Shown here one piece after another: positions 17,520-50,137 of a DNA stretch of 64,000 bases. Source of the stretch: Clostridia bacterium (GTDB lineage: Bacteria > Bacillota > Clostridia > DUPQ01); contig JAUUZV010000001.1 of NCBI GenBank assembly GCA_030592085.1, positions 807 through 64,806 on the forward strand, written 5' to 3'. Below the pieces are notes generated by a model. It was not told the origin of the DNA and made no database searches. It saw nothing but the letters and a program-made list of their open reading frames with translations. The translations under genes were made by a program, and so were the position numbers. How positions within the stretch are numbered: the stretch's first letter is position 1; the number at the start of each line of letters is the position of its first letter.

Positions 17520-17909
17520 ATGTTTAAATTAAAAAAAGAATTTAATATTAGTTGTAGTCATAGACTTTTTGATATGGATGCGTCAGATGAAACAAATAGT
17601 ATAATTTTTGGTAGATGTTGTAAAAATCATGGGCACAATTATAAAATAATTCTTTATCTTAAATCTGACTCATTAAAGCATGGTATGTTATTAAATTTTA
17701 ATGAAATAAAAGACATTTTCAACTTACATATAGATAATGTATATGATCATAAATTTTTGAATGATTGTCCTGGTTTTGAAAACGTTATACCAACTGCAGA
17801 AAATATGTGTAAAGTGTTTTTTAATAAGCTTAAAGTACATTTATCGACTTTATATGCTGTAGAAATATATGAAACAGAAGGTGCTTCTGCTATTTATGAG
17901 GATGATTAA
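17520..17909 (+). CDS. queD: 6-carboxy-5,6,7,8-tetrahydropterin synthase (QueD/PTPS family)
   Basis: CSHRLFDMD, CCKNHGHNYKI (CxxxHGH) and DHKFLND are QueD/PTPS signature motifs. SD AAGGAG upstream. Confidence 0.7.
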   Translation: MFKLKKEFNISCSHRLFDMDASDETNSIIFGRCCKNHGHNYKIILYLKSDSLKHGMLLNFNEIKDIFNLHIDNVYDHKFLNDCPGFENVIPTAENMCKVFFNKLKVHLSTLYAVEIYETEGASAIYEDD

Positions 17910-17910
17910 A

Positions 17911-18495
17911 ATGAAAGTGAATGAAATGTTTGAATCGTTGCAAGGCGAAGGTCGTTTTGTTGGATATCCTGTTATGTTTATTAGAATGTCAGGGTGTAAT
18001 AGGTCTTGCGTCTTTTGCGACACATCTTATCATAACGAAGGAGAAGAACTGTCAGTAGAACAAATGGTTAAAAAGATAGATAAAAGTAATATGAATATTA
18101 TTATTTTTACTGGAGGAGAACCTATGATGCAGTTCGATGATATTATAAAAGTTATTGAACAAACAAAAGATAAACAATATCATATTGAAACTAATGGTGA
18201 TTTATTAGTTCCTGAAAGTTATTTTGATTATGTATGTTTTTCACCTAAAAGTGAAGAAGGTTTAAATAAAGCATTAGGATATCCTGGTATATGTGATATA
18301 AAAGTAGTTACAGATTTAAATTTAAATAAAAATATGTTAGAGTCAGCGACGATGATAATGCCGTTAACAACTATATCAGATATTAAAAATTTAAAAATTA
18401 AACAACAAGTATGGAAGTATTGTGAGAAACATAACAAGCGATATGCACCTAGACTTCATGTGGATGTTTGGGGAATGTCTAAACGAGGAGTTTAA
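17911..18495 (+). CDS. queE: 7-carboxy-7-deazaguanine synthase (QueE, radical SAM)
   Basis: Start is the ATG after GAGGATGA. MFESLQGEGRFVGYPVMFIRMSGCNRSCVFCDT carries the radical-SAM CxxxCxxC cluster motif and a QueE-like N-terminus. Confidence 0.75.
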   Translation: MKVNEMFESLQGEGRFVGYPVMFIRMSGCNRSCVFCDTSYHNEGEELSVEQMVKKIDKSNMNIIIFTGGEPMMQFDDIIKVIEQTKDKQYHIETNGDLLVPESYFDYVCFSPKSEEGLNKALGYPGICDIKVVTDLNLNKNMLESATMIMPLTTISDIKNLKIKQQVWKYCEKHNKRYAPRLHVDVWGMSKRGV

Positions 18496-18885
18496 ATGAG
18501 AGATAATACAGATAATCTAAACAAAATGTATATTAGTTGGGAACAGTTTGGTATTGATATTGATAAATTAGCAAATCTTATTAGTTTAGAAGCTAGAGAG
18601 TTTGATAGCATTTATGGAATACCTCGTAATGGCACTATTATATCTAGTATTCTATCAAAAATGTTAAATTTGAAAATGGTTGATTATCCAGACTCCACTA
18701 GAACTCTTATAGTTGACGATATTTCGGATTCAGGAAAAACCTTAAAGGAATATAAGAACAAATTTAACGGTAATGTGATAGCTTGTATTTTTTATCGACA
18801 AAATACAGAAATAATGCCAGATATAGTTGTATATGATGCACAAAAAGATTGGATTGTATTTCCTTTTGAATTAAATGAAAAATAA
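18496..18885 (+). CDS. xanthine-guanine phosphoribosyltransferase-like type I PRTase
   Basis: TLIVDDISDSGKTL is a PRPP-binding motif. The N-terminal YISWEQF, the central GIPRNGTIISSIL and the C-terminal VVYDAQKDWIVFPF are collinear with E. coli Gpt. Confidence 0.65.
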   Translation: MRDNTDNLNKMYISWEQFGIDIDKLANLISLEAREFDSIYGIPRNGTIISSILSKMLNLKMVDYPDSTRTLIVDDISDSGKTLKEYKNKFNGNVIACIFYRQNTEIMPDIVVYDAQKDWIVFPFELNEK

Positions 18886-18899
18886 TTAATATAATAAAA

Positions 18900-19307
18900 A
18901 TGGCATCTGAAATGATCAATAACGAAGAATTAAACAATATGATACCTAAAGATCGTCACTCTGTTTTTAAAAAATTATCAGCAGAGGAAATAAGAAACTT
19001 ACATCCATCATATGTTAAAGTCATTGAAGAAAGTGGTATTACAGTTGAAGAGTATTTAGAACGAGTAAGAACAAAAAAATATCAAAAAAATAATAATCAA
19101 AAAATGAATGAACAACAAATGAATGATTTGGTAGATAAAGAAGTTGAGAAGGTAAAACAGCGGGATAAAACTGATGTTTTGAATAAGATTAAACACGCAA
19201 AACCACCTAAATCCGGCTCAAGGTTTGAAGATGTGTTAAAAGGTTATGAAGAAAAATATAAATATAAGTACAAGCGATTTGTCAAAGATTACAGGAATTC
19301 ATCTTAG
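18900..19307 (+). CDS. hypothetical Lys/Glu-rich protein
   Basis: 135-aa ORF of charged low complexity. Confidence 0.35.
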   Translation: MASEMINNEELNNMIPKDRHSVFKKLSAEEIRNLHPSYVKVIEESGITVEEYLERVRTKKYQKNNNQKMNEQQMNDLVDKEVEKVKQRDKTDVLNKIKHAKPPKSGSRFEDVLKGYEEKYKYKYKRFVKDYRNSS

Positions 19308-19382
19308 TTATGTTTCACGATTAAAGAAACAAGTTAAGGAATATTTAGAAGATCAAAATAAAAAACATTAAATGAGGTAAAA

Positions 19383-19877
19383 ATGATACAAAATCCAGAA
19401 ATGATTATAGAAAAAGATTTTGTTTCTCCAGTTACAGAGGAACAAATACAAATGAATGGAATTGATTTGAGAGTTGAAAGTGTACAGTCTATTGAAGGTG
19501 TTGTTTCTATATTTAAAGATAGTAAACAGTTGCCAAATTATATAAATATAAAGAGTGAAGTTAATTTAAATAAAGGAAAAATTTGGAAATTAGAACCTGG
19601 TAAAGCTTATCTTTTACAAATAGCAGAAACAATAAAAATACCAGAAGGAATGTGTGCTATGGTTTGGATGCGTTCAACCTTTAATAGAAGTGGAATTCCT
19701 ATCTTTGCCTGTGTTTTTGATTCAGGTTATGAAGGCAAACCAACATTCACAGCATATCCTACAATTCCTTTGTATTTAGAAAAAGGAACAAGGGTGGCTC
19801 AGATAGTTTATTTTAATGCTGATACTGCTAAAATGTATGTTGGTCAGTATCAAGGAGAAGGAATAAAAAAAGAATGA
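19383..19877 (+). CDS. dCTP deaminase/dUTPase-superfamily enzyme
   Basis: NGIDLRV, LEPGKAYLLQ and VFDSGYEGK are the beta-barrel dUTPase/Dcd motifs. SD GAGGT upstream. Confidence 0.6.
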   Translation: MIQNPEMIIEKDFVSPVTEEQIQMNGIDLRVESVQSIEGVVSIFKDSKQLPNYINIKSEVNLNKGKIWKLEPGKAYLLQIAETIKIPEGMCAMVWMRSTFNRSGIPIFACVFDSGYEGKPTFTAYPTIPLYLEKGTRVAQIVYFNADTAKMYVGQYQGEGIKKE

Positions 19878-19892
19878 ATGAGGTAATATAAA

Positions 19893-20123
19893 ATGAAAAA
19901 AATGAATACTTTAAGTAGGGCAACAATTTATGTGCATCGAAATCATGAAATGAGAGAAAAAGGAAGACTCAAATTTTTTAAACATGAAAGAATTAGGATT
20001 GAAATTAAATTAAAAAATAAAGAAAAAGCTGATTTCATTTATGCTGATGAGCTACAGAAATATCTAGCCGAAAATTTTGAATATGGAACAAAGTTAGAAA
20101 AGGAGGAGAAAAAAGATGAATAA
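19893..20123 (+). CDS. hypothetical small basic protein
   Basis: 76-aa ORF with an SD upstream. Confidence 0.3.
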   Translation: MKKMNTLSRATIYVHRNHEMREKGRLKFFKHERIRIEIKLKNKEKADFIYADELQKYLAENFEYGTKLEKEEKKDE

Positions 20124-20946
20124 AGAATTACCAAAATATAGAAATAAAGAAGATACAACAGGTTTAGCAATACAAAAAGTTGGTATACGAGGAGTAAGAG
20201 CACCGTTTACTTTAAAAACAAAAAATGGTGGAGATCAAGAAACTATAGGAACTTGGAGTATATATACAGATTTATCAGCACAATTTAAAGGTGTTAGTAT
20301 GAGTCTTATGGAAAGAATACTACATCAAACTTTACAAAATGAAATAAGTGTTGATATATTAAAAGATATAACAACTCAAATTTATGAAAAGTCTGAACAC
20401 AAATCCAAAGATGTATATGTGAAAGTTAAATTTCCATACTCAATTAAAGTTAAAGCACCAGCATCTGGTTTTGAAGCTGTAAAGGTTTATGATTGTATGT
20501 TGGAAGTTAGAAATATTGATGGAAAGATTAAAAAATATTTAACTGTAAAAGTTCAATATATAGCAACTTGTCCATGTGCGGCTGAATTAGCTGATGAATT
20601 AATGAAGACTGAAAATAAACAAAGTATGGCACATCAACAAAGAGGTTTTGCTGAAATTACTATAGAATTTGGAAATGAAATTGTATGGATAGAAGATGTG
20701 ATTAACATTGCAGAAAATGAATTAAAAGCTACACCATATCCAGTTATTAGAAGGCCAGATGAACAAAATATTTGTTATACAGCACGTCAAAACTGTGCTT
20801 TTGTAGAAGAAGCTGTAAGAAATATTTGTCTTGGTCTTATTAAAGAATCTAGAATTTTAGATTATGTTGTAGTATGTAATCATGAGGAAAGTATTCATTC
20901 TCACTCAGCCGTTGCTGTAATGAATGATGGAAAGGAGTTAAAATGA
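20116..20946 (+). CDS. folE2: GTP cyclohydrolase FolE2/MptA family (GCYH-IB)
   Basis: N-terminal VGIRGVRAPF, GVSMSLMERI (compare GxHMSRF) and the conserved CPC motif (ATCPCAAEL). SD GGAGGAG upstream. Confidence 0.65.
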   Translation: MNKELPKYRNKEDTTGLAIQKVGIRGVRAPFTLKTKNGGDQETIGTWSIYTDLSAQFKGVSMSLMERILHQTLQNEISVDILKDITTQIYEKSEHKSKDVYVKVKFPYSIKVKAPASGFEAVKVYDCMLEVRNIDGKIKKYLTVKVQYIATCPCAAELADELMKTENKQSMAHQQRGFAEITIEFGNEIVWIEDVINIAENELKATPYPVIRRPDEQNICYTARQNCAFVEEAVRNICLGLIKESRILDYVVVCNHEESIHSHSAVAVMNDGKELK

Positions 20947-21293
20947 GCAAAATAACTAAATCAATAATTGTAAAAACAGTTTTTAATGGAGAACATATGT
21001 ATGAAGATGCACCAGAAGAAATTAAATTTCTGAGGGAACTTCACCCGCATATTTTTTTTGTATCGGCAAATATAGAGGTAACTAATAGCACTCGTGAATT
21101 AGAATTTTTCATGGTAAAAAGAGTTATAGACGACTATTGTAAAGAGTTTTTAACAGGTAATAGTGGTCGCTCTTGCGAAACTATGGCAGAATCTATTATT
21201 AATCTTTTACATAAAAAATATGGAAAAAGAAATTGTACTGTAACTGTATACGAAGATAACCAGAATGCTGGGAGGGTAAAATATGAAATTTGA
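20943..21293 (+). CDS. hypothetical protein
   Basis: 116-aa ORF, translationally coupled to its neighbours (ATGA overlap). Confidence 0.35.
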   Translation: MSKITKSIIVKTVFNGEHMYEDAPEEIKFLRELHPHIFFVSANIEVTNSTRELEFFMVKRVIDDYCKEFLTGNSGRSCETMAESIINLLHKKYGKRNCTVTVYEDNQNAGRVKYEI

Positions 21294-21516
21294 AATAACT
21301 TTAGATGTGAAAGATGAAGCTATACAAAAACATTTTAAAGATTTTTGTCAAAGTTTAGCTGATAGATTTGCTGCAGGGGAAAAAGAATACGGTGTAAGTA
21401 GTTACATGGATATGGATTTAGAAGAAGAATTAAAACAGGAATTACTCGATATTCCAAATTATTTGTTGTTAAGGTTTATTCAAATGCAAAAAAGAAAGGA
21501 GGCGGCAAAAAAATGA
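21283..21516 (+). CDS. hypothetical small acidic protein
   Basis: 77-aa ORF with SD GGGAGGG. Confidence 0.3.
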   Translation: MKFEITLDVKDEAIQKHFKDFCQSLADRFAAGEKEYGVSSYMDMDLEEELKQELLDIPNYLLLRFIQMQKRKEAAKK

Positions 21517-22262
21517 AATTAGCTTTTATTAGTACTATAAAGAACCCACAACTAAGTTTAGAAGGAGATTTGTTATTCACTTTAGCACAACATGCTTTTA
21601 AGGTAGATGATTATATTGAATTTTATAAAAAACAAAAAAAATACAAGATTGTTGATTGTGGCGCCGCGGAACATGAAACTGTAAAACCAGAAATATTGTT
21701 AGATGTAGCTCGTGAATTGGATGCTAATGAAATCATTGTTCCAGATAAATTATGTGTTGGTTGGCGCTCAACTTTAATGGCTAAAAATTTTTTTGAAACA
21801 CTTAGTCATGATGAAGCAAAAAAATATACTTTTCAATTAGTTGGTCAAGGAAAAACACCAGAACAATATATGACAAATGTAAATAATGTACTTAATCATG
21901 ATTTATGTCCACCAAATGTTATTTTAGGCATAAGTAAATTTTCTTCAGTTATGTCTTTTGGTAACAGAGTAAGATGTGTAAAACATCTTATTGATAATGG
22001 TATCAAAAATGAAATGCATTTGCTTGGTACTACAGATGATTTAGCTGAGATTGTGAAGTTGAAAGACATTGCTCAAATTAGAAGTAATGATAGTTGTATT
22101 GCTATTTTAGCAGCAACTGAAGGATTAAAATTTACAAAAGATAATTTGTCTACGCTTAAACGTCCTGTAACTACAAATAAATATTTTGATATTCAGATGA
22201 GTGAAGAACAAATATTATTGGCTAAAGAAAATATGAAAGTACTAAAAAATACACAGGCTTAA
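21513..22262 (+). CDS. hypothetical protein at the end of the deazaguanine module; candidate transglycosylase (DpdA/TGT-like?), unproven
   Basis: 249-aa ORF with SD AAGGAGG. Its position after FolE2/QueD/QueE is suggestive, but no diagnostic motif was recognised by eye. Confidence 0.3.
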   Translation: MKLAFISTIKNPQLSLEGDLLFTLAQHAFKVDDYIEFYKKQKKYKIVDCGAAEHETVKPEILLDVARELDANEIIVPDKLCVGWRSTLMAKNFFETLSHDEAKKYTFQLVGQGKTPEQYMTNVNNVLNHDLCPPNVILGISKFSSVMSFGNRVRCVKHLIDNGIKNEMHLLGTTDDLAEIVKLKDIAQIRSNDSCIAILAATEGLKFTKDNLSTLKRPVTTNKYFDIQMSEEQILLAKENMKVLKNTQA

Positions 22263-22787: not shown

Positions 22788-23906
22788 ATGACTATGAAAG
22801 CCGTATTATATATGAGATTGTTTGAAGATTCTGGAATAACTAAATTACAAATATTTAAAAATAAAAAAGAACATCTTGTTGAGTTACCATTTAAACCTTA
22901 TTTTTTTGACTCAGCCAAAATAGATGGGTTAGTTGGAGAAGAAGTTATTTTAAAACCAGTTGATACATTACAACCTACTAAACTTTTTAAATATGAAGTT
23001 GATTCTGTAAAAGATATACCTAAATTAAGAACTAAAACGAGTATAGCTGCAGATGTAAATTATTTATTACGATTATGTATAGATCAACCTAGCTTTTTGA
23101 ACCAGTATTTTCAAACAGATGAATTAACATTTTTATATCTTGATATTGAAACTGATAGTATTGGAATTTTCCCTAAGCCTGAATTGAACCCAATTATTAG
23201 TATAGGATATGCTATTAATGATGGTCCAGTAAAAGTAATTAAAATTGATAAATTAGAAGATGGTGATATAAAACTTTTATTAGAGTTTAATGAAGTTATG
23301 GAAAAGTACAATCCTGATGTCATAGTTGGATATAATATTTTAATGTTCGATTTACCATATATTTTGAAAAGAATGAAAAAGAATGGAATAAGTACAGATT
23401 GTTGGACAAGAGGTAAAACATCTGCATTTTTCACAACTAGTTCTGGTAATGAAGTTTATAATATTCAAGGAAGGTTTGTATTTGATGTGATTAAAGAAGT
23501 GTTTCAAGATCAAACAATTCATGGCATTTCGAAAGGATTAAAACCAGTTTCAAAATATTTTAAAGTTGATGAAAAAATAAGACAAATACCAGGATATGAA
23601 GATTATCAAATTATAACTGAAGATGTTCATATCACGAGGCCATTAATCGGAACAGATAAATTGGCAAAATATAATGAGAGTGATGTTCTTATCACACGTG
23701 AATTATGTAAAATGTACATTGCTAATGTGATAGCGTTTGCAGAAATGTTACATGCTCCATTAAATATGATGGCTAAACGAACTACAAGTATGATAGGTTC
23801 TATTTTTTATGCAACCGAACTTAAAAAGAAAGGTATTATTGAATGTACTATGCCTAATTATAAAAGACACCCAGATGTATTTGGAACTTTAAAGGAGGGT
23901 TATTAA
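22788..23906 (+). CDS. polB: family B DNA polymerase, N-terminal half (3'-5' exonuclease domain)
   Basis: Exo I is YLDIETD, Exo II is YNILMFDLPY, Exo III is YNESD. The gene ends in TAA, which overlaps the ATG of the next gene. Confidence 0.75.
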   Translation: MTMKAVLYMRLFEDSGITKLQIFKNKKEHLVELPFKPYFFDSAKIDGLVGEEVILKPVDTLQPTKLFKYEVDSVKDIPKLRTKTSIAADVNYLLRLCIDQPSFLNQYFQTDELTFLYLDIETDSIGIFPKPELNPIISIGYAINDGPVKVIKIDKLEDGDIKLLLEFNEVMEKYNPDVIVGYNILMFDLPYILKRMKKNGISTDCWTRGKTSAFFTTSSGNEVYNIQGRFVFDVIKEVFQDQTIHGISKGLKPVSKYFKVDEKIRQIPGYEDYQIITEDVHITRPLIGTDKLAKYNESDVLITRELCKMYIANVIAFAEMLHAPLNMMAKRTTSMIGSIFYATELKKKGIIECTMPNYKRHPDVFGTLKEGY

Positions 23907-25105
23907 TGCCTTTTTTTAGAGAGTCTCGATTTAATGATGAGAAAGGAATACAAGGAGCTATTGTAGAGATTTATAAAACTGGTTTAATACGAAAAATAAA
24001 AAAGGTTGATTTTTCTGCTTTTTATCCTAGCATTGTTATGAGTTTTAATTTATCACCAGAAACAACAAAGATAAAGGAATATTTACCTTATACTAATAAA
24101 TATGATTTTGATATACAAAAGGATAGAACATTGTTATATATTCCAGATAATAGAATTAATAAAACAGTTGTCATTGAAATAAATAACACTATTCAAGGAT
24201 TTCTTCCAGCAAAACTTATTGAATTTAAAGAAAAAAGAGATAAGATTAAATTAAGATTAAGAGAAAAAAATTTAACACCAGGTGAACAAGTTTATCTTAA
24301 TAGTTTATCATGGACTTATAAAATTTTATCAAATTCTGTTGGTTATGGAATTAATAAAAATGCATGGTTTAAATATGGAGATTTATCAATATCAATAGCA
24401 ATTACTGGATTGGCTAGATATTTTATTCAGTTTGTAATGGACTTAAATCTTGATAAGAATATTGAAGTAGATACTGATGGTATATATGTAGATGGTGATA
24501 TAAATATTGATGATGTTAATTATAAAATAAAGGAACATACATTAGATAAATTTAATATTCCATTTGTTAAAAATTATTTATTTTTAGAGTTAGATGAATA
24601 CGATGCTGGATTTTTTTATAAAACTAAGAATTATCTTTTATTTAATAATGGTAAAGTTATAAAACATGGTGTTACATTTTTATCAAGTAGTAAAACAATA
24701 CTTTTTAAGAAAGCTTTAGATAAAATAGCTGAATATATATTTAATAATAAGTCAGTTATTGAAGCTGTTAATATACTTATAAATGAAGAAAGTACACTTA
24801 AAGATTTTACTATGAAAACTAATATAAATCAACCTATTTCTGAATATAAAAATGATGGATGTTTGCAAAAACAATTAGCTAAACAAGTTAAAGAACATTT
24901 AAAACAAGATTTACAAGTTTCTGATACAATCGATTATATTAAGACCAAAGATGGCTATAAAATATTAACGATAGCAAAGTTACACGAAGTTGATAAAAGA
25001 TATTATTATGATCAATTACAAACGTTAATTAATATTTTTACTGATGAAAAAATTAGTATTGAGAACGGTGGAGCTGTAATACAAAAAAAACTTGAAGGGT
25101 ATTAG
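23906..25105 (+). CDS. polB: family B DNA polymerase, C-terminal half (polymerase domain)
   Basis: Motif A is DFSAFYPSI, motif B is KILSNSVGYG, motif C is VDTDGIYV. It is in a different frame from the upstream half and overlaps it by 1 nt. Confidence 0.75.
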   Translation: MPFFRESRFNDEKGIQGAIVEIYKTGLIRKIKKVDFSAFYPSIVMSFNLSPETTKIKEYLPYTNKYDFDIQKDRTLLYIPDNRINKTVVIEINNTIQGFLPAKLIEFKEKRDKIKLRLREKNLTPGEQVYLNSLSWTYKILSNSVGYGINKNAWFKYGDLSISIAITGLARYFIQFVMDLNLDKNIEVDTDGIYVDGDINIDDVNYKIKEHTLDKFNIPFVKNYLFLELDEYDAGFFYKTKNYLLFNNGKVIKHGVTFLSSSKTILFKKALDKIAEYIFNNKSVIEAVNILINEESTLKDFTMKTNINQPISEYKNDGCLQKQLAKQVKEHLKQDLQVSDTIDYIKTKDGYKILTIAKLHEVDKRYYYDQLQTLINIFTDEKISIENGGAVIQKKLEGY

Positions 25106-25401: not shown

Positions 25402-25857
25402 GTGAAAAAAATGACTGAAGAAATTTTAATTTCGGAAGATGGGGAAACTCAAGTACTTTTATCAGATATACATAAATTTACTGTTTTTCACAAAACTTAT
25501 GAGAATGGATTAAAATTAAAAGCATATGTCAATCCTGATTTATGTACTGTTATTGATGATATGGGTGAAGTAATTAAAAAAGGCAAGTATGAACATTTTC
25601 AAGTATATGAACATGATAAATTTTGTGCAGGAAGTAGACCAGGAAGTAGAGAAAGAATATCAAGAGAAATATCAAATGGTTTTATAGTGTTAGGCAAATA
25701 TAATAAGTGTAGAACGAAGCTTATGAATAAAGTTAAAAAAGAAGCAAAAACAAAACAAAATAATAGTGTAGTAATGACAGGAATGAGTAGTGGTTATGCA
25801 GTACATAATAGTTATTTAGAATTAAAAATGAATGGTGATAATGATGTCAAAATATAA
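25402..25857 (+). CDS. hypothetical protein
   Basis: 151-aa ORF. Confidence 0.35.
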   Translation: MKKMTEEILISEDGETQVLLSDIHKFTVFHKTYENGLKLKAYVNPDLCTVIDDMGEVIKKGKYEHFQVYEHDKFCAGSRPGSRERISREISNGFIVLGKYNKCRTKLMNKVKKEAKTKQNNSVVMTGMSSGYAVHNSYLELKMNGDNDVKI

Positions 25858-26095
25858 CACCAATAAAAAATATAGAGAATGTGTAAAAAGATGTGTTAAA
25901 AAATATAGAGCTACTGAGAAAGGTATTATAACAACTCAACGAGCATTAAAAAAATTAAAAGATGTATATCCAGATTACATGAAAGATTATATGAAAAAAC
26001 GAAGATCTGAAGCAAAAATACAAGGTATTTGTTGTAGATGTTTAAAAAGAAAAGCAATTAAAGGCATGGTATTATGTCGAATATGTAGAATATGA
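25832..26095 (+). CDS. basic protein with C-terminal Cys cluster (zinc-binding?)
   Basis: Ends in CCRCLKRKAIKGMVLCRICRI. Confidence 0.3.
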   Translation: MVIMMSKYNTNKKYRECVKRCVKKYRATEKGIITTQRALKKLKDVYPDYMKDYMKKRRSEAKIQGICCRCLKRKAIKGMVLCRICRI

Positions 26096-26391
26096 GGTGT
26101 AATAAAATGAATGAAGAAAATACATTAGGCAAATTCGAATGCGATAAATGTAGTAGTATAACTATTCTTAAAATTGATGATGATATAGGTGGTACTATTG
26201 ATTGTAATAATTGTGGGGAAATGATTGATGTATGTCCTGAATGTAAATCAAAACAGGTTGAAATTGATGATTTTGGTGTTACATTATGTGATATATGTTT
26301 TGAAAAGAATTCAAAAGCAAAAAGTTATGTGCATGAAATGTCAAGACAAGAAGCTTATGATACTGGAAGACCAATGAGTAATAATGATTGA
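26092..26391 (+). CDS. zinc-ribbon protein
   Basis: CDKC..(n)..CNNCG..(n)..CPECK..(n)..CDIC gives four CxxC pairs. Confidence 0.4.
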   Translation: MRCNKMNEENTLGKFECDKCSSITILKIDDDIGGTIDCNNCGEMIDVCPECKSKQVEIDDFGVTLCDICFEKNSKAKSYVHEMSRQEAYDTGRPMSNND

Positions 26392-27133: not shown

Positions 27134-27763
27134 ATGAATGAAATGGAAACAAAAAAAATAGCAATAGTTGGTGCTGGTGGCATTAATAGTTGGGCTATAA
27201 AATGGTTACATCAGTTAATTGAAGATTTTGATAGAAAATTAATTTATGTAAAGATCTTCGATAATGATGAAGTAGAAGAAAAGAATTTACTACGTAATAA
27301 TCAAAATTTTCAAATAGATGATTTACTATCACAAAAGGCGGAAGTTCTTTCTGAAAGATATAACTTTGATTGTGAAAACATTTTTATTACTGAGGATAAT
27401 ATTCAAAAATTAGCTAGTTTTGATGATATAATTTTAGGAGTAGATAATCATAAAACTAGGAAATTAATTTATGATTTTGCATTAAAGAATAATAAATATG
27501 TTCTTGATATGAGAGCTCAAGGCACTATCATGGGTTTTACAATTATAGATGGTAGTAAAGACATGGATTATTATAATAAAAAAATGTTTAATAATTTAGA
27601 AGTTATGGAAAGAAAAGGTAGTTGTCAGTTAAAGAGTGATGTTGAAAATGATCATATAGAAAATGCTAATCGAGTAATAGCAATGTTAGGTATTTATTCA
27701 GTTTATTTGAAAAGATTAAGAAAAGAAAAAGTATCTACGGACGAATGGAAATTTGTATATTAA
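27134..27763 (+). CDS. ThiF/MoeB/E1-like adenylyltransferase (adenylation domain only)
   Basis: IVGAGGINSW is the Gly-rich loop. FDNDEVEEKNLLRNNQ matches DxDxVExSNLNRQ. LGVDNHKTRKLI matches the DN..R motif. There is no C-terminal CxxC region. Confidence 0.6.
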   Translation: MNEMETKKIAIVGAGGINSWAIKWLHQLIEDFDRKLIYVKIFDNDEVEEKNLLRNNQNFQIDDLLSQKAEVLSERYNFDCENIFITEDNIQKLASFDDIILGVDNHKTRKLIYDFALKNNKYVLDMRAQGTIMGFTIIDGSKDMDYYNKKMFNNLEVMERKGSCQLKSDVENDHIENANRVIAMLGIYSVYLKRLRKEKVSTDEWKFVY

Positions 27764-29861
27764 AATGGTAGACACAATTTTGTTAGATGAGTTTAAATTT
27801 TATAATAAACAGAAGATTGTTATAGATGAAGCTATAATTAATTCATTTGAACAAAAATTGAAGAAAGGAGAAAATAGATTAAGATGGACTAATAATTTAT
27901 TTGCTGATAATAAGATGTCGTTTGAATTTTCAAAAAGTGATGATGAAAATTTTATTGCTATGCATTCTTATTATTTTAAAGTAACTACAAAACAGATAGA
28001 TAATGTAAAAACAATTTGGAATGATTATGTATTTTTTAATTTTAATTTAACAAATAATCAAGAACAAGTTTTAGAAGAAATTGATTATTCATCAGGAGCA
28101 ATACAAGAGGAGTTAATAATAGATGATAAATTAAGTAGAACATTTGATAATTTTGAAGATTTTTTAATATTATTAATTGAAAAAGAAACTTTTTCTTTTG
28201 ATATAACTTTTAATTTTTATGAAGGAGCTGAATATGAAGAGCAAAATAAAAAGGATCAAACAGAAATTTTAGAAAGTTTAAATTTTATTTTGAAAGCAGT
28301 CTTTAATGAAGAACAGATGTTAGAATTGCCTAAGTATACTATTAATTATAAACACATGAGAGATTCATTATATCATATTTTTAAAGTAGTTGAGAAAAGA
28401 TATAATAATAAAAATTATCGTATAGCTTTTATCACACATATTAAAACCAATAGTGATTTTATTTTTAAGGTTAAGGTGTATTCTGAAGATAATGAAGAAT
28501 ATAATTATATTGATGAAAAGGTATTATATGTAAATGATAGTGATAATAATTATTATTTAGATATAAATCTAAATGAATATAATAATATAGGTTCATTACG
28601 AGTAGATATGAATATTTTTAAAATTTTAGCTAAATATATTTCAAAAGTAATTGGTGAAACAGATAGTAGAATAATTACATCTAATATATTTAATTTTTAT
28701 AAATCAAAAGTGAGTTTTTTTAATAATTGGGATGATGAAGATATACAAGATGAAAAAGAATTGAAGATAATTGCTAAATATTTAGATTTGTTAAGAGGAG
28801 GACGAACAATTAAGATAGAACAAGTCAAAATAAATAAAACAAGTATTAGTCTTGATGATGATTCATTTAAAATTGAATTTAAAGAAAGTTTTTTTGATGT
28901 TGCTAGTAATTTTCTTGAATTAAGAAGATTGATATTAAGAAATGATGCTAAATATAATTTTAATCTATTATATGAAAAAATATTATCACTTTCTATGTTA
29001 CAAATTATAGATCGTTCTAATGTGAAAGACGATGATTATAAAGAATTTGAAGAATGTAGTTTTAAAGTTAATGACATGGTTATTAATATTGATAAAGGAG
29101 ATAATGGAAGAATACGTATTAATGATATTTTTTCTAGAATAGATGACGTCGATGATGTTTTGAATAGAGCAATTTGCTATAATAATGTTGATGATTATAA
29201 CCAGTACTTAAAAGATGTTAGTTATATTGGAATTGATTTAAAAAGAATGATCAATAATGGTATTGTGATATGGTTACAAAATCCATTACATAGTTTATTT
29301 CAACTTCATGGCGATACTTCATTAGAAAAAATGCAAGTTAGGTTTAGTTTATTTTGGGATTCAGAAAAAAGATCAAGAATATATTTACATTTAAACAATA
29401 AAAAATATTTAATTAAAAAGAAAGGAAAATTTAAAACTTTTTTTAATAAGCCAGTAGCAACGGTAAAAATTTCACAATTAAATGTATTATTAAAAGAGTG
29501 TTTAGAAGAGTGGAAACCTGGCCAATTATTAGAAGTAGTAGAAAATGCTTTAGAAGAGTTTAAAATTATTAAAGCTAGAGGAGAAAAATTAGTCAAAGAA
29601 ACAATAGAAGAAATTAACGCATTAAAGAATAATATAATAATAAATGGGCGAGAAATTAATGGCTTTTTATTAAGAGGTATATTGACTAATAAAGAATACT
29701 TTATTGAAAATGAAAACTTAGATGTGTATAAAAAAATTGATGGTGTTTGGAATCGAAGATGTGTAGTAAGTGATCCAAACAAATCAAGAATATATGAAGA
29801 CAGATTAGCCAATCGATTGATTAATATTTATAATGAAAATCCTAATATAACAACAATATAA
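27753..29861 (+). CDS. large Asn/Asp-rich hypothetical protein (702 aa)
   Basis: Long ORF overlapping the ThiF-like gene by ATG..TAA. No motif recognised. Confidence 0.45.
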   Translation: MYIKMVDTILLDEFKFYNKQKIVIDEAIINSFEQKLKKGENRLRWTNNLFADNKMSFEFSKSDDENFIAMHSYYFKVTTKQIDNVKTIWNDYVFFNFNLTNNQEQVLEEIDYSSGAIQEELIIDDKLSRTFDNFEDFLILLIEKETFSFDITFNFYEGAEYEEQNKKDQTEILESLNFILKAVFNEEQMLELPKYTINYKHMRDSLYHIFKVVEKRYNNKNYRIAFITHIKTNSDFIFKVKVYSEDNEEYNYIDEKVLYVNDSDNNYYLDINLNEYNNIGSLRVDMNIFKILAKYISKVIGETDSRIITSNIFNFYKSKVSFFNNWDDEDIQDEKELKIIAKYLDLLRGGRTIKIEQVKINKTSISLDDDSFKIEFKESFFDVASNFLELRRLILRNDAKYNFNLLYEKILSLSMLQIIDRSNVKDDDYKEFEECSFKVNDMVINIDKGDNGRIRINDIFSRIDDVDDVLNRAICYNNVDDYNQYLKDVSYIGIDLKRMINNGIVIWLQNPLHSLFQLHGDTSLEKMQVRFSLFWDSEKRSRIYLHLNNKKYLIKKKGKFKTFFNKPVATVKISQLNVLLKECLEEWKPGQLLEVVENALEEFKIIKARGEKLVKETIEEINALKNNIIINGREINGFLLRGILTNKEYFIENENLDVYKKIDGVWNRRCVVSDPNKSRIYEDRLANRLINIYNENPNITTI

Positions 29862-42980: not shown

Positions 42981-43337
42981 ATGGTTTTTGGAAAGAAGAA
43001 AAAAGATGAACAAAAAATTGATTTTAGTGATCCAAATATAGCTGTACAAGTTCCAGCTCCAGTTATAACATATCCAGAGGGTGTTGATGAAAATGGTGAA
43101 CCAATTAATGTATCAGGTCAAATTGATGAATCTCCAAGAGTATTTAATTCACCTTTTGGTGGTACTACAAAAACTGAACCAGAAGAAATTCAATTAATAA
43201 TGCGTATGGAATTACGTCTTCAGGATAAACATATGATGCAAGAAATGCTTGATGGACTACATTCTATAATTAAGGATTATGGAAAGGAGGTTATTATAAA
43301 TTTTAGTATTGAACCTGAAAAAGCAAAAAATGCCTAG
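42981..43337 (+). CDS. acidic protein, tandem paralog 2 (N-terminus MVFGKKKKDEQ)
   Basis: Shares its N-terminus with the previous gene. Confidence 0.4.
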   Translation: MVFGKKKKDEQKIDFSDPNIAVQVPAPVITYPEGVDENGEPINVSGQIDESPRVFNSPFGGTTKTEPEEIQLIMRMELRLQDKHMMQEMLDGLHSIIKDYGKEVIINFSIEPEKAKNA

Positions 43338-46657: not shown

Positions 46658-47368
46658 TTACCTCAGTTTTCTAAATTTGTTTTTAATAATAAACCCAATC
46701 ATTACAAGGCCTAATAAAAACGCCTTTATTTTGCTACCTGTTACAGAAGATTTACCAACTCTTTTCTTATAATTTAATGGGATCTCCATAAAATTAATAT
46801 TTTTTTTAATAATTAATAACATCATTTCCACTCCAAAATGAGAACCTCCTATTGTGAAATAAGGTTCAATTTTTTGTAATACTGATCTTTTTATTAAACG
46901 CATAGTACATCCAACGTCTGTTAAAATTGAAGTATTGTAAAGCAATTCCATTAGTTTTGCAATAAATACATTTCCCCATTTGATAAAGAAGCCTATATTT
47001 GCTCCTTCCCAAATAAGATTTCTGCTAGTCCTAGAACCGAAAACCACATCAAAGTCATCCGAATAGGCTAATAATTTAATTATATCTCTGCCTAAAAAAG
47101 TTCCATCTGGTTCTGCTAAGATTATATAATCACCACTTGCAAATTTTAATCCTTTTCTAATTGCATGACCATAACCTTGTTTATGTTCATATACTTCTTT
47201 TGCTTTAGTTTTTGATACTTCTTTAGATGTACCATAAGCAGCATTATTATTTACAACAATTATTTCATCAATATATCCAGAACTAAAGAAATCATTAATT
47301 GAAGTCTTTATAGATTTCTTCTCATTGTAAGTTGGAAAAATTACAGATATTTTTTTATTTTTCCACAT
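46658..47368 (-). CDS. family-2 glycosyltransferase (dolichyl-phosphate sugar synthase-like)
   Basis: N-terminal ISVIFPTYNEKKSI, DGTF and YIILAEPDG are GT2/DPM1-like motifs. Amphipathic C-terminus. Confidence 0.6.
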   Translation of the reverse strand: MWKNKKISVIFPTYNEKKSIKTSINDFFSSGYIDEIIVVNNNAAYGTSKEVSKTKAKEVYEHKQGYGHAIRKGLKFASGDYIILAEPDGTFLGRDIIKLLAYSDDFDVVFGSRTSRNLIWEGANIGFFIKWGNVFIAKLMELLYNTSILTDVGCTMRLIKRSVLQKIEPYFTIGGSHFGVEMMLLIIKKNINFMEIPLNYKKRVGKSSVTGSKIKAFLLGLVMIGFIIKNKFRKLR

Positions 47369-49483: not shown

Positions 49484-50137
49484 TCATATTCTTCTTGCTG
49501 CTATTTTTCCTTTTTCTTTTCTATATCTTCTTAATAAAGTTGAGGTAGTAACACCAATTGTTTTAGCTATTTCAGACCACGAATATACAAATTTACCTGT
49601 GTCTTTATCTGTTACAGCTAAAAAATTTTCGACTTGTTTCCAATTAATTTTTGCTTTTGGTCTTCCAAACTTTTCAGGATTGTTCTTATATGCGATATCT
49701 CTACCAATTCTAGTATTATCTATTATAGTTTCTCTTTGCCATTCAGCAACACTAGCCATAATACCCATAACCATTCTTCCAAATGTGTTTGCAGTATCTA
49801 AACTTTGTTCTACAAATTTAAGATGTATATTTATTTTTTGTAATTCTTTTTGAGTATTAATCATTTGTTGTAAATTTCTACCGAATCTATCAACTCTTAG
49901 ACAATATATTTTATCAAATTTTTTTTCTTTAGCATCTATAATCATTTTTAAAAAATCTTTCATATATTCTTGTGACTTACCACTAATATATTGATCTACA
50001 TAACTTTTATAGAATTCATTATCATCAACACTAATCTGCTTATTACATTTATCTAATTGGTTTTGAATACTTTTTGCGATGTATTCACCTTGTTCCTTTC
50101 TAGTTGGACTAACTCGTGCGTATATTGCCGCTTTCAT
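49484..50137 (-). CDS. small serine recombinase (resolvase/invertase family)
   Basis: N-terminal AAIYARVSPTRKEQ contains the catalytic Ser context, plus SIQNQ. C-terminal HTH is IAKTIGVTTSTLLRRYR. Confidence 0.7.
   Translation of the reverse strand: MKAAIYARVSPTRKEQGEYIAKSIQNQLDKCNKQISVDDNEFYKSYVDQYISGKSQEYMKDFLKMIIDAKEKKFDKIYCLRVDRFGRNLQQMINTQKELQKINIHLKFVEQSLDTANTFGRMVMGIMASVAEWQRETIIDNTRIGRDIAYKNNPEKFGRPKAKINWKQVENFLAVTDKDTGKFVYSWSEIAKTIGVTTSTLLRRYRKEKGKIAARRI

Follow-up and report, generated by a model that had tools for sequence, protein, structure and literature searches.

Split B-family DNA polymerases (PolBs) have already been documented, including in phages, and several of them bear on the locus described here, a pair of overlapping open reading frames (ORFs) at positions 22788 to 25105 of a 64,000-nucleotide (nt) stretch of contig JAUUZV010000001.1 from a Clostridia bacterium assembly (the window, to whose coordinates all positions refer). 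In the Methanobacteriales, a split PolB (Kelman et al. 1999) has been attributed to erratic intein excision (PMC4104785), a precedent that the first-pass annotation of the locus had cited and that the literature supports. The PolB of Nanoarchaeum equitans is split with a trans-splicing split intein (PMC4104785, PMC5434244), and the DNA polymerases of group B magroviruses and of Methanobacterium are split within the catalytic domain, with the two magrovirus halves lying adjacent to each other (PMC5434244). In the Aeromonas phages 44RR2.8t and 25, gene 43 is described as divided into gp43A and gp43B (Petrov et al. 2010, as cited in PMC2988022), and the two parts from phage 25 are reported there to co-purify and to have polymerase activity. 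The phiKZ-like jumbo phages EL, phiKZ and 201phi2-1 are described by Kazlauskas and Venclovas (2011, PMC3201878) as having separate exonuclease and polymerase ORFs. An accidental termination–reinitiation split of the Pfu polymerase is also on record, with better incorporation of a modified nucleotide by the resulting polymerase (PMC3061061). The window adds no new category to these cases. What appears to be new, as judged from the sequences compared, is a break in the linker between exonuclease and polymerase, in its most compact form, within an archaeal-type PolB clade that is otherwise fused.

The first gene, ORF1 (22788–23906, + strand, 372 amino acids (aa)), encodes the PolB N-terminal and 3′–5′ exonuclease subunit, with the ATG at 22794 as a second possible start. 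The second, ORF2 (23906–25105, + strand, 399 aa), encodes the polymerase subunit, comprising palm, fingers and thumb. Exo I (LDIETDS, 23139–23159), Exo II (GYNILMFDLPY, 23328–23360) and Exo III (YNESDVLIT, 23670–23696) are all found in ORF1 and, on the same strand, motif A (DFSAFYPSI, 24008–24034), motif B (KILSNSVGYG, 24320–24349), motif C (VDTDGIY, 24467–24487) and the KxY motif (24620–24634) are found in ORF2. Pfam assigns ORF1 to DNA_pol_B_exo1 (PF03104, 2.6e-19) and ORF2 to DNA_pol_B (PF00136, 3.7e-16), and the residues D119, E121, D188 and D299 are invariant in the homologue alignment (A1). A phmmer search of the PDB matched ORF2 to Pyrococcus abyssi PolB at 8.5e-17; in the solved structures of that enzyme, residues 100–379 align with ORF1 and residues 405–700 with ORF2. 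Because the two ORFs align to adjoining ranges of P. abyssi PolB and their motifs are complete, they are contiguous halves of one PolB, with no segment missing or duplicated. Each has its own start and stop, together they make up a single PolB and neither an intein nor an intron joins them, as in a naturally split enzyme. At the TAATG junction (23904–23908, + strand), the TAA of ORF1 (23904–23906) and the ATG of ORF2 (23906–23908) share the A at 23906, so that ORF2 is read in the −1 (+2) frame with respect to ORF1. This anatomy, read directly from the DNA, agrees with the first-pass annotation, which had placed Exo I–III in the first gene and motifs A, B and C in a second gene that lies in a different frame and overlaps the first by one nucleotide. 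Its view that this is a real two-gene arrangement and not a truncation is likewise supported by the intact, complementary halves.

Alignment with fused homologues places the break in a linker. The homology of ORF1 runs to its last residues (...NYKRHPDVFGTLKEGY, followed by the stop), and that of ORF2 resumes immediately at MPFFRESRFNDEKGIQGAIV.... When the ends of the ORFs are simply joined, the linker from FG to QGA is 20 residues long, and in fused relatives it is 14–20 residues. ORF1 and ORF2, concatenated as one chain, were also modelled with AlphaFold2, which gave a mean predicted local distance difference test (pLDDT) score of 84.9 and a predicted template modelling (pTM) score of 0.75. 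The only internal segment with pLDDT <50 consists of residues 375–378, at the junction. Foldseek returned PolBs of the Thermococcales as top matches, with an expect value (E) of 5.6e-39 and a template modelling (TM) score of about 0.65. Because the low-pLDDT segment coincides with the junction in an otherwise confident model, the cut falls in a flexible linker on the surface, which joins the N-terminal/exonuclease part to the first palm strand. Exo I–III in ORF1, motifs A, B and C in ORF2 and the overall PolB fold seen with AlphaFold2 and Foldseek identify the product as a family B DNA polymerase of the RNA/DNA-primed archaeal/T4-like type, for which both polymerase and proofreading activity are predicted.

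The position of this cut sets the window apart from the described systems. Like the Aeromonas phages 44RR2.8t and 25, the window has adjacent, same-strand cistrons for the two parts of a replicative PolB. However, the gp43A of 44RR2.8t (498 aa) contains Exo I–III together with motif A (DLTSLYPS, residue 397), and its gp43B (391 aa) contains motifs B and C; the 44RR2.8t break therefore falls between motifs A and B, with a 49-nt untranslated spacer, whereas the window break falls before motif A, with a 1-nt overlap. Phage 25 differs further in having a homing endonuclease gene and an intron, and the split in the window is not of the 44RR/25 type. In the phiKZ-like phages, the B-family exonuclease and polymerase are likewise separate polypeptides, with the division at the same boundary between domains, but these enzymes belong to a highly divergent PolB clade detectable solely by profile methods. 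The enzymes of the Methanobacteriales, N. equitans and the magroviruses are also naturally split B-family polymerases, those of the magroviruses with both halves side by side in the genome of a virus. By contrast with the window, in which the break is upstream of motif A, their breaks lie inside the catalytic domain and are intein-linked, and the window split is not of the intein-derived Methanobacteriales or N. equitans type.

The best explanation of the locus, to which we assign a probability of roughly three in four, is a genuine, translationally coupled two-subunit PolB made from two cistrons. ORF1 and ORF2 would be co-transcribed, and no promoter-like or terminator-like site stands out between them. 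Ribosomes translating ORF1 would terminate at the TAA. Translation of ORF2 would then begin at the ATG that overlaps this stop, through reinitiation or through new initiation on a strong Shine–Dalgarno (SD) sequence. This sequence, AAGGAGG (23892–23898, + strand), lies within the coding sequence of ORF1 (codons K-E-G) and 7 nt 5′ of the ORF2 ATG, an optimal spacing that gives the downstream half its own translation-initiation signal. The window contains 8 copies of AAGGAGG on both strands, against 2.2 expected from base composition, and all except the copy at 43284 (7 of 8, including that of ORF2) lie 5–11 nt before an ORF start. In this element, the 7-mer thus all but marks a gene start. Starts led by an SD are the norm in the window, which has 27% GC, and overlapping stop/start junctions are common in it (five of the ATGA type, plus others). 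In the fused relatives at loci L009 and L010, neither an SD nor an ATG is present at the homologous place.

Under two-cistron expression, roughly equal amounts of both chains would be expected, and the chains would assemble non-covalently into a normal ring-shaped PolB. We infer this co-assembly, the activity of the complex and the mechanism of coupling; association of the two products into an active enzyme is suggested indirectly, by the single-chain model and by the literature on 44RR/25. The split itself most likely goes back to a small indel that struck the linker of an ancestor with a fused gene, in an event separate from that in the other split clade considered below, and the indel would have been tolerated because, or once, the SD and ATG let the downstream half be made.

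Relatives of the window polymerase were sought in several collections. Used as a query, the concatenated protein found 71 homologues; those most similar to it (P0002–P0005; 36–40% identity, 774–780 aa) are unsplit, some of them carrying inteins. A HMMER search with ORF2, exhaustive over 1.84 billion cluster representatives, recovered the protein itself (P0072) and then the fused proteins P0073, P0074 and P0076 at ≤42% identity. Among GenBank phages, no blastn or tblastn match was closer than 27% identity; IMG/VR and GTDB genomes yielded no close relative and no independent copy of the junction; and both window proteins were absent from the encoding-contig index. Because 0 of 80 IMG/VR relatives are split at the window's site, we regard the arrangement as rare. 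Five candidates that looked like 'pol-only' proteins of 400–460 aa were rejected and left out of the split count: the starts of P0087 and P0094 are no more than about 120 nt away from the end of a contig, and P0081, P0108 and P0185 are on contigs too short for a whole PolB gene.

A separate clade of uncultivated viruses has a PolB split in the same linker. One member, P0197 (385 aa), begins at the same enzyme position as ORF2. The P0197 gene occurs on 8 contigs from 5 samples, each time preceded by a 344-aa exonuclease gene, and the DNA is identical across all five loci examined. The exonuclease and polymerase genes overlap in TAATG (...GTG TTG TGG TAATG TTC...). A search with P0197 yielded 20 further proteins of 220–443 aa, at 33–61% identity; the polymerase Pfam domain alone is present in 18 of them, and the two shortest (220 and 269 aa) are without Pfam annotation. 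In every context examined, an exonuclease gene lies upstream on the same strand (the split-clade loci are L001–L006 and L091–L095; for example, L001 2967–5158 and L094 828–4119). The spacers between the halves measure −1, 215, 374, 1033 and 1653 nt, and the exonuclease subunits end 0–6 residues past a conserved motif, RF.G.LW in most. The longer spacers contain small ORFs and Dam methylase genes, the latter in L006 and L094/L095, and the break point of this clade appears to act as an insertion hot spot. The contigs are 19–42 kb long, with a GC content of 44–52% in the six loci measured, compared with 27% in the window.

In neighbour-joining (NJ) trees, at least 13 of these pol-only proteins (41–61% identity in all but one, which has 33%) form a clade with 94% bootstrap support that is sister to fused enzymes. 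In 55% of NJ replicates, the window is placed with its fused relatives, and in 0 of 200 with the split clade. Because none of the 200 bootstrap trees joins the window to the split clade, the window is best read as a second, independent occurrence of the split, within about 6 residues of the same position. In the P0197/P0195 clade of viruses, a linker-split PolB is a stable and inherited architecture, and evidently a functional one, whose two halves have worked as separate proteins through long periods of evolution. Clade and window share a break in the linker that leads from the N-terminal/exonuclease part to the strand preceding motif A and the same-strand order of exonuclease gene then polymerase gene, and L001 has the identical one-base TAATG overlap. 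They differ in that the clade belongs to another PolB subclade (29% identity to ORF2) and has spacers of 215–1653 nt in most members, some with Dam methylase genes. The first-pass annotation had considered an adjacent, coupled split unusual in a mobile element; the survey of IMG/VR agrees that it is rare, but the statement went too far in view of the precedents in 44RR/25, the magroviruses, the phiKZ-like phages and the P0197 clade.

The same comparisons bear on whether the junction could be an assembly or sequencing indel in a gene that truly encodes one PolB of about 772 aa. A single ORF would require +1 nt or −2 nt within 23864–23903, that is, one base missing or two extra in the assembled sequence, and the deletion of one T from TATTAATG, a candidate restorer of the fused ORF, was discarded because it gives the wrong frame. 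That rescue interval holds the short runs AAA, GGG and TTT, the locus is known from a single contig without an independent copy and all close relatives are fused, each of which would suit such an error. However, 83 homopolymer runs (A/T ≥7 nt or G/C ≥5 nt) occur in long ORFs that remain intact, a single 912-aa ORF holding 12 of them, and the assembly is therefore not prone to indels. An error would also have had to fall by chance beside a pre-existing AAGGAGG with an ATG 7 nt later, when just 1 of the 8 copies of this motif in the window lies away from a gene start, and would have had to create the exact TAATG overlap. Moreover, the same architecture is present in another lineage, in which it was assembled identically from 5 samples. 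We consider an indel error very unlikely.

A further feature of the junction, absent like the SD from the first-pass annotation, is the heptamer T_TTA_AAG (23888–23894, + strand), a canonical −1 slippery sequence that lies in the ORF1 frame and precedes the stop codon of that gene by 10 nt. In the ORF2 frame, no stop interrupts the sequence from 23864 onwards, and the heptamer is within the stretch that is open in both frames. Programmed −1 frameshifting at this site would produce a fused full-length PolB (...FGTLK/GGLLMPFF...) containing the trans-frame peptide ...FGTLKGGLLMPFFR, with ORF1 alone as the unshifted product. The fused linker would then be 21 residues long, close to the 14–20 of fused relatives. 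Heptamers of the form X_XXA_AAG are rare in the genes of the window (10 in 15,951 codons, a chance of ~0.008 per 13 codons), but in a genome this AT-rich some X_XXY_YYZ heptamer would turn up by chance in 14% of 13-codon intervals, and the one observed is in part a consequence of the SD and of the L-K codons. A stimulatory structure was not found in the 96 nt from 23895 to 23990, in which the minimum free energy is −12.4 kcal/mol (z = 0.37 relative to shuffles). In dnaX, the frameshift-stimulating SD is about 10 nt upstream of the heptamer; by contrast, the SD in the window overlaps the 3′ end of the heptamer or follows it. The analogous TAATG split of L001 has no slippery heptamer, and ORF2 has a strong start signal of its own. 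The T_TTA_AAG heptamer is probably incidental, and we judge programmed −1 frameshifting to be unlikely. Frameshifting to +1 of the prfB type (an SD followed by UAU UAA) was also rejected: it would not lead into ORF2, which lies in the −1 frame, and reading in the +1 frame would shortly meet a stop codon. Very unlikely, too, is a dual-output switch, in which most ribosomes would restart to give separate subunits and a set fraction would slip −1 to give a fused PolB. If true, the element would run two forms of the replicase, of which one might, for instance, have a proofreader that can dissociate, and this might be tied to the copying of its 7-deazaguanine-modified DNA.

The remaining alternative is that a recent frameshift inactivated the gene, which would be a decaying pseudogene in an element reliant on another replicase. 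The singleton lineage with fused relatives and the absence of accumulated change at the break favour this reading. Nevertheless, these 2.3 kb of 27% GC DNA are disrupted only once, the catalytic residues are all intact and the SD and ATG would still allow ORF2 to be translated. Among the large ORFs of the window, many of which are unassignable, a second replicative polymerase was not found. We rate the chance of a pseudogene as slim, much as for an indel error. The recent and programmed frameshifts that the first-pass annotation had offered as alternatives accordingly keep a place among the explanations, but only a minor one.

Several observations nevertheless weigh against a genuine two-cistron PolB. 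Both window proteins are singletons, found once each on one NCBI contig (67,018 bp), and the nearest relatives (P0073, P0074, P0076 and P0002–P0005; 36–42% identity) are all fused. Conservation of a linker split is seen only in the independent P0197 clade, and because the lineage is a singleton with fused nearest relatives, the split in the window may have arisen very recently. Neither half has gained additional residues at its broken end, and an in-frame slippery heptamer stands just before the ORF1 stop. The lack of a cross-check for the split within its own lineage is the main weakness of any conclusion about it.

For the origin of the two-cistron PolB, excision of an intein was considered alongside a small indel. 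Intein-size insertions occur in relatives of the window enzyme at ~191 (Exo II), ~243, ~410 (motif A), ~515 (motif B) and ~561 (motif C), in the numbering of the concatenated ORF1 and ORF2. P0001, P0084, P0096, P0137, P0208 and others have insertions at these five sites, and some proteins carry two. No relative has an intein-size insertion at 372/373, the nearest hot spot being about 37 residues from the break, and neither ORF1 nor ORF2 has a Pfam match to an intein or endonuclease domain. Because the sites differ and intein domains are absent, the erratic-excision route does not fit the window, and an intein-excision origin was rejected, there being no intein remnant at a break that coincides with none of the insertion sites of relatives. 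A small linker indel is the simplest origin.

The polymerase genes belong to a virus-like and extremely novel element. Directly upstream of them, a 7-deazaguanine (preQ0-type) synthesis module (17520–22262, + strand) comprises genes for a QueD-like protein (17520–17909), a QueE-like radical S-adenosylmethionine (SAM) protein (17869–18495), a phosphoribosyltransferase-like protein (18496–18885), a dUTPase/dCTP-deaminase-like protein (19383–19877) and FolE2 (20116–20946), all on the + strand. A 249-aa protein (21513–22262, + strand), which matches only phrog_20335, a family of unknown function, could be a DNA transglycosylase. The gene content of the module suggests that the element may have a modified genome. 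Just downstream of the polymerase genes are two small adjacent ORFs of 87 and 99 aa (25832–26391, + strand) that are CxxC-rich and likely encode zinc-ribbon proteins. A gene for a ThiF/E1-like protein (27134–27763, + strand) overlaps the start of a 702-aa ORF (27753–29861, + strand) for which Pfam and PHROG gave no match. Both collections were likewise without a match for the ORFs of 912, 839, 836, 477, 403 and 365 aa, and Laminin_G_3 is the sole match of a 1342-aa ORF. Almost none of the large ORFs has such a match, and with this gene content no host or virus type emerged for the element. A GT2 glycosyltransferase (46658–47368) and a serine recombinase (49484–50137) are encoded on the − strand, and no tRNAs were found in the window.

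If the two-cistron PolB is real, the window would represent an independent natural experiment in which a B-family replicase was cut between its proofreading and polymerase modules and yet was kept by selection. Taken with the separate split clade, it would single out this one linker as a permissive place for a break and one that evolution has used repeatedly: it has been cut at least twice, and the TAATG overlap occurs in one other case. This convergent re-use of the linker and of TAATG in two lineages is the most interesting aspect of the finding. It would be useful for the engineering of split or exonuclease-swappable polymerases, and it would bear on the evolution, from single-chain enzymes, of replicases with several subunits in which the polymerase and the proofreader are different chains.

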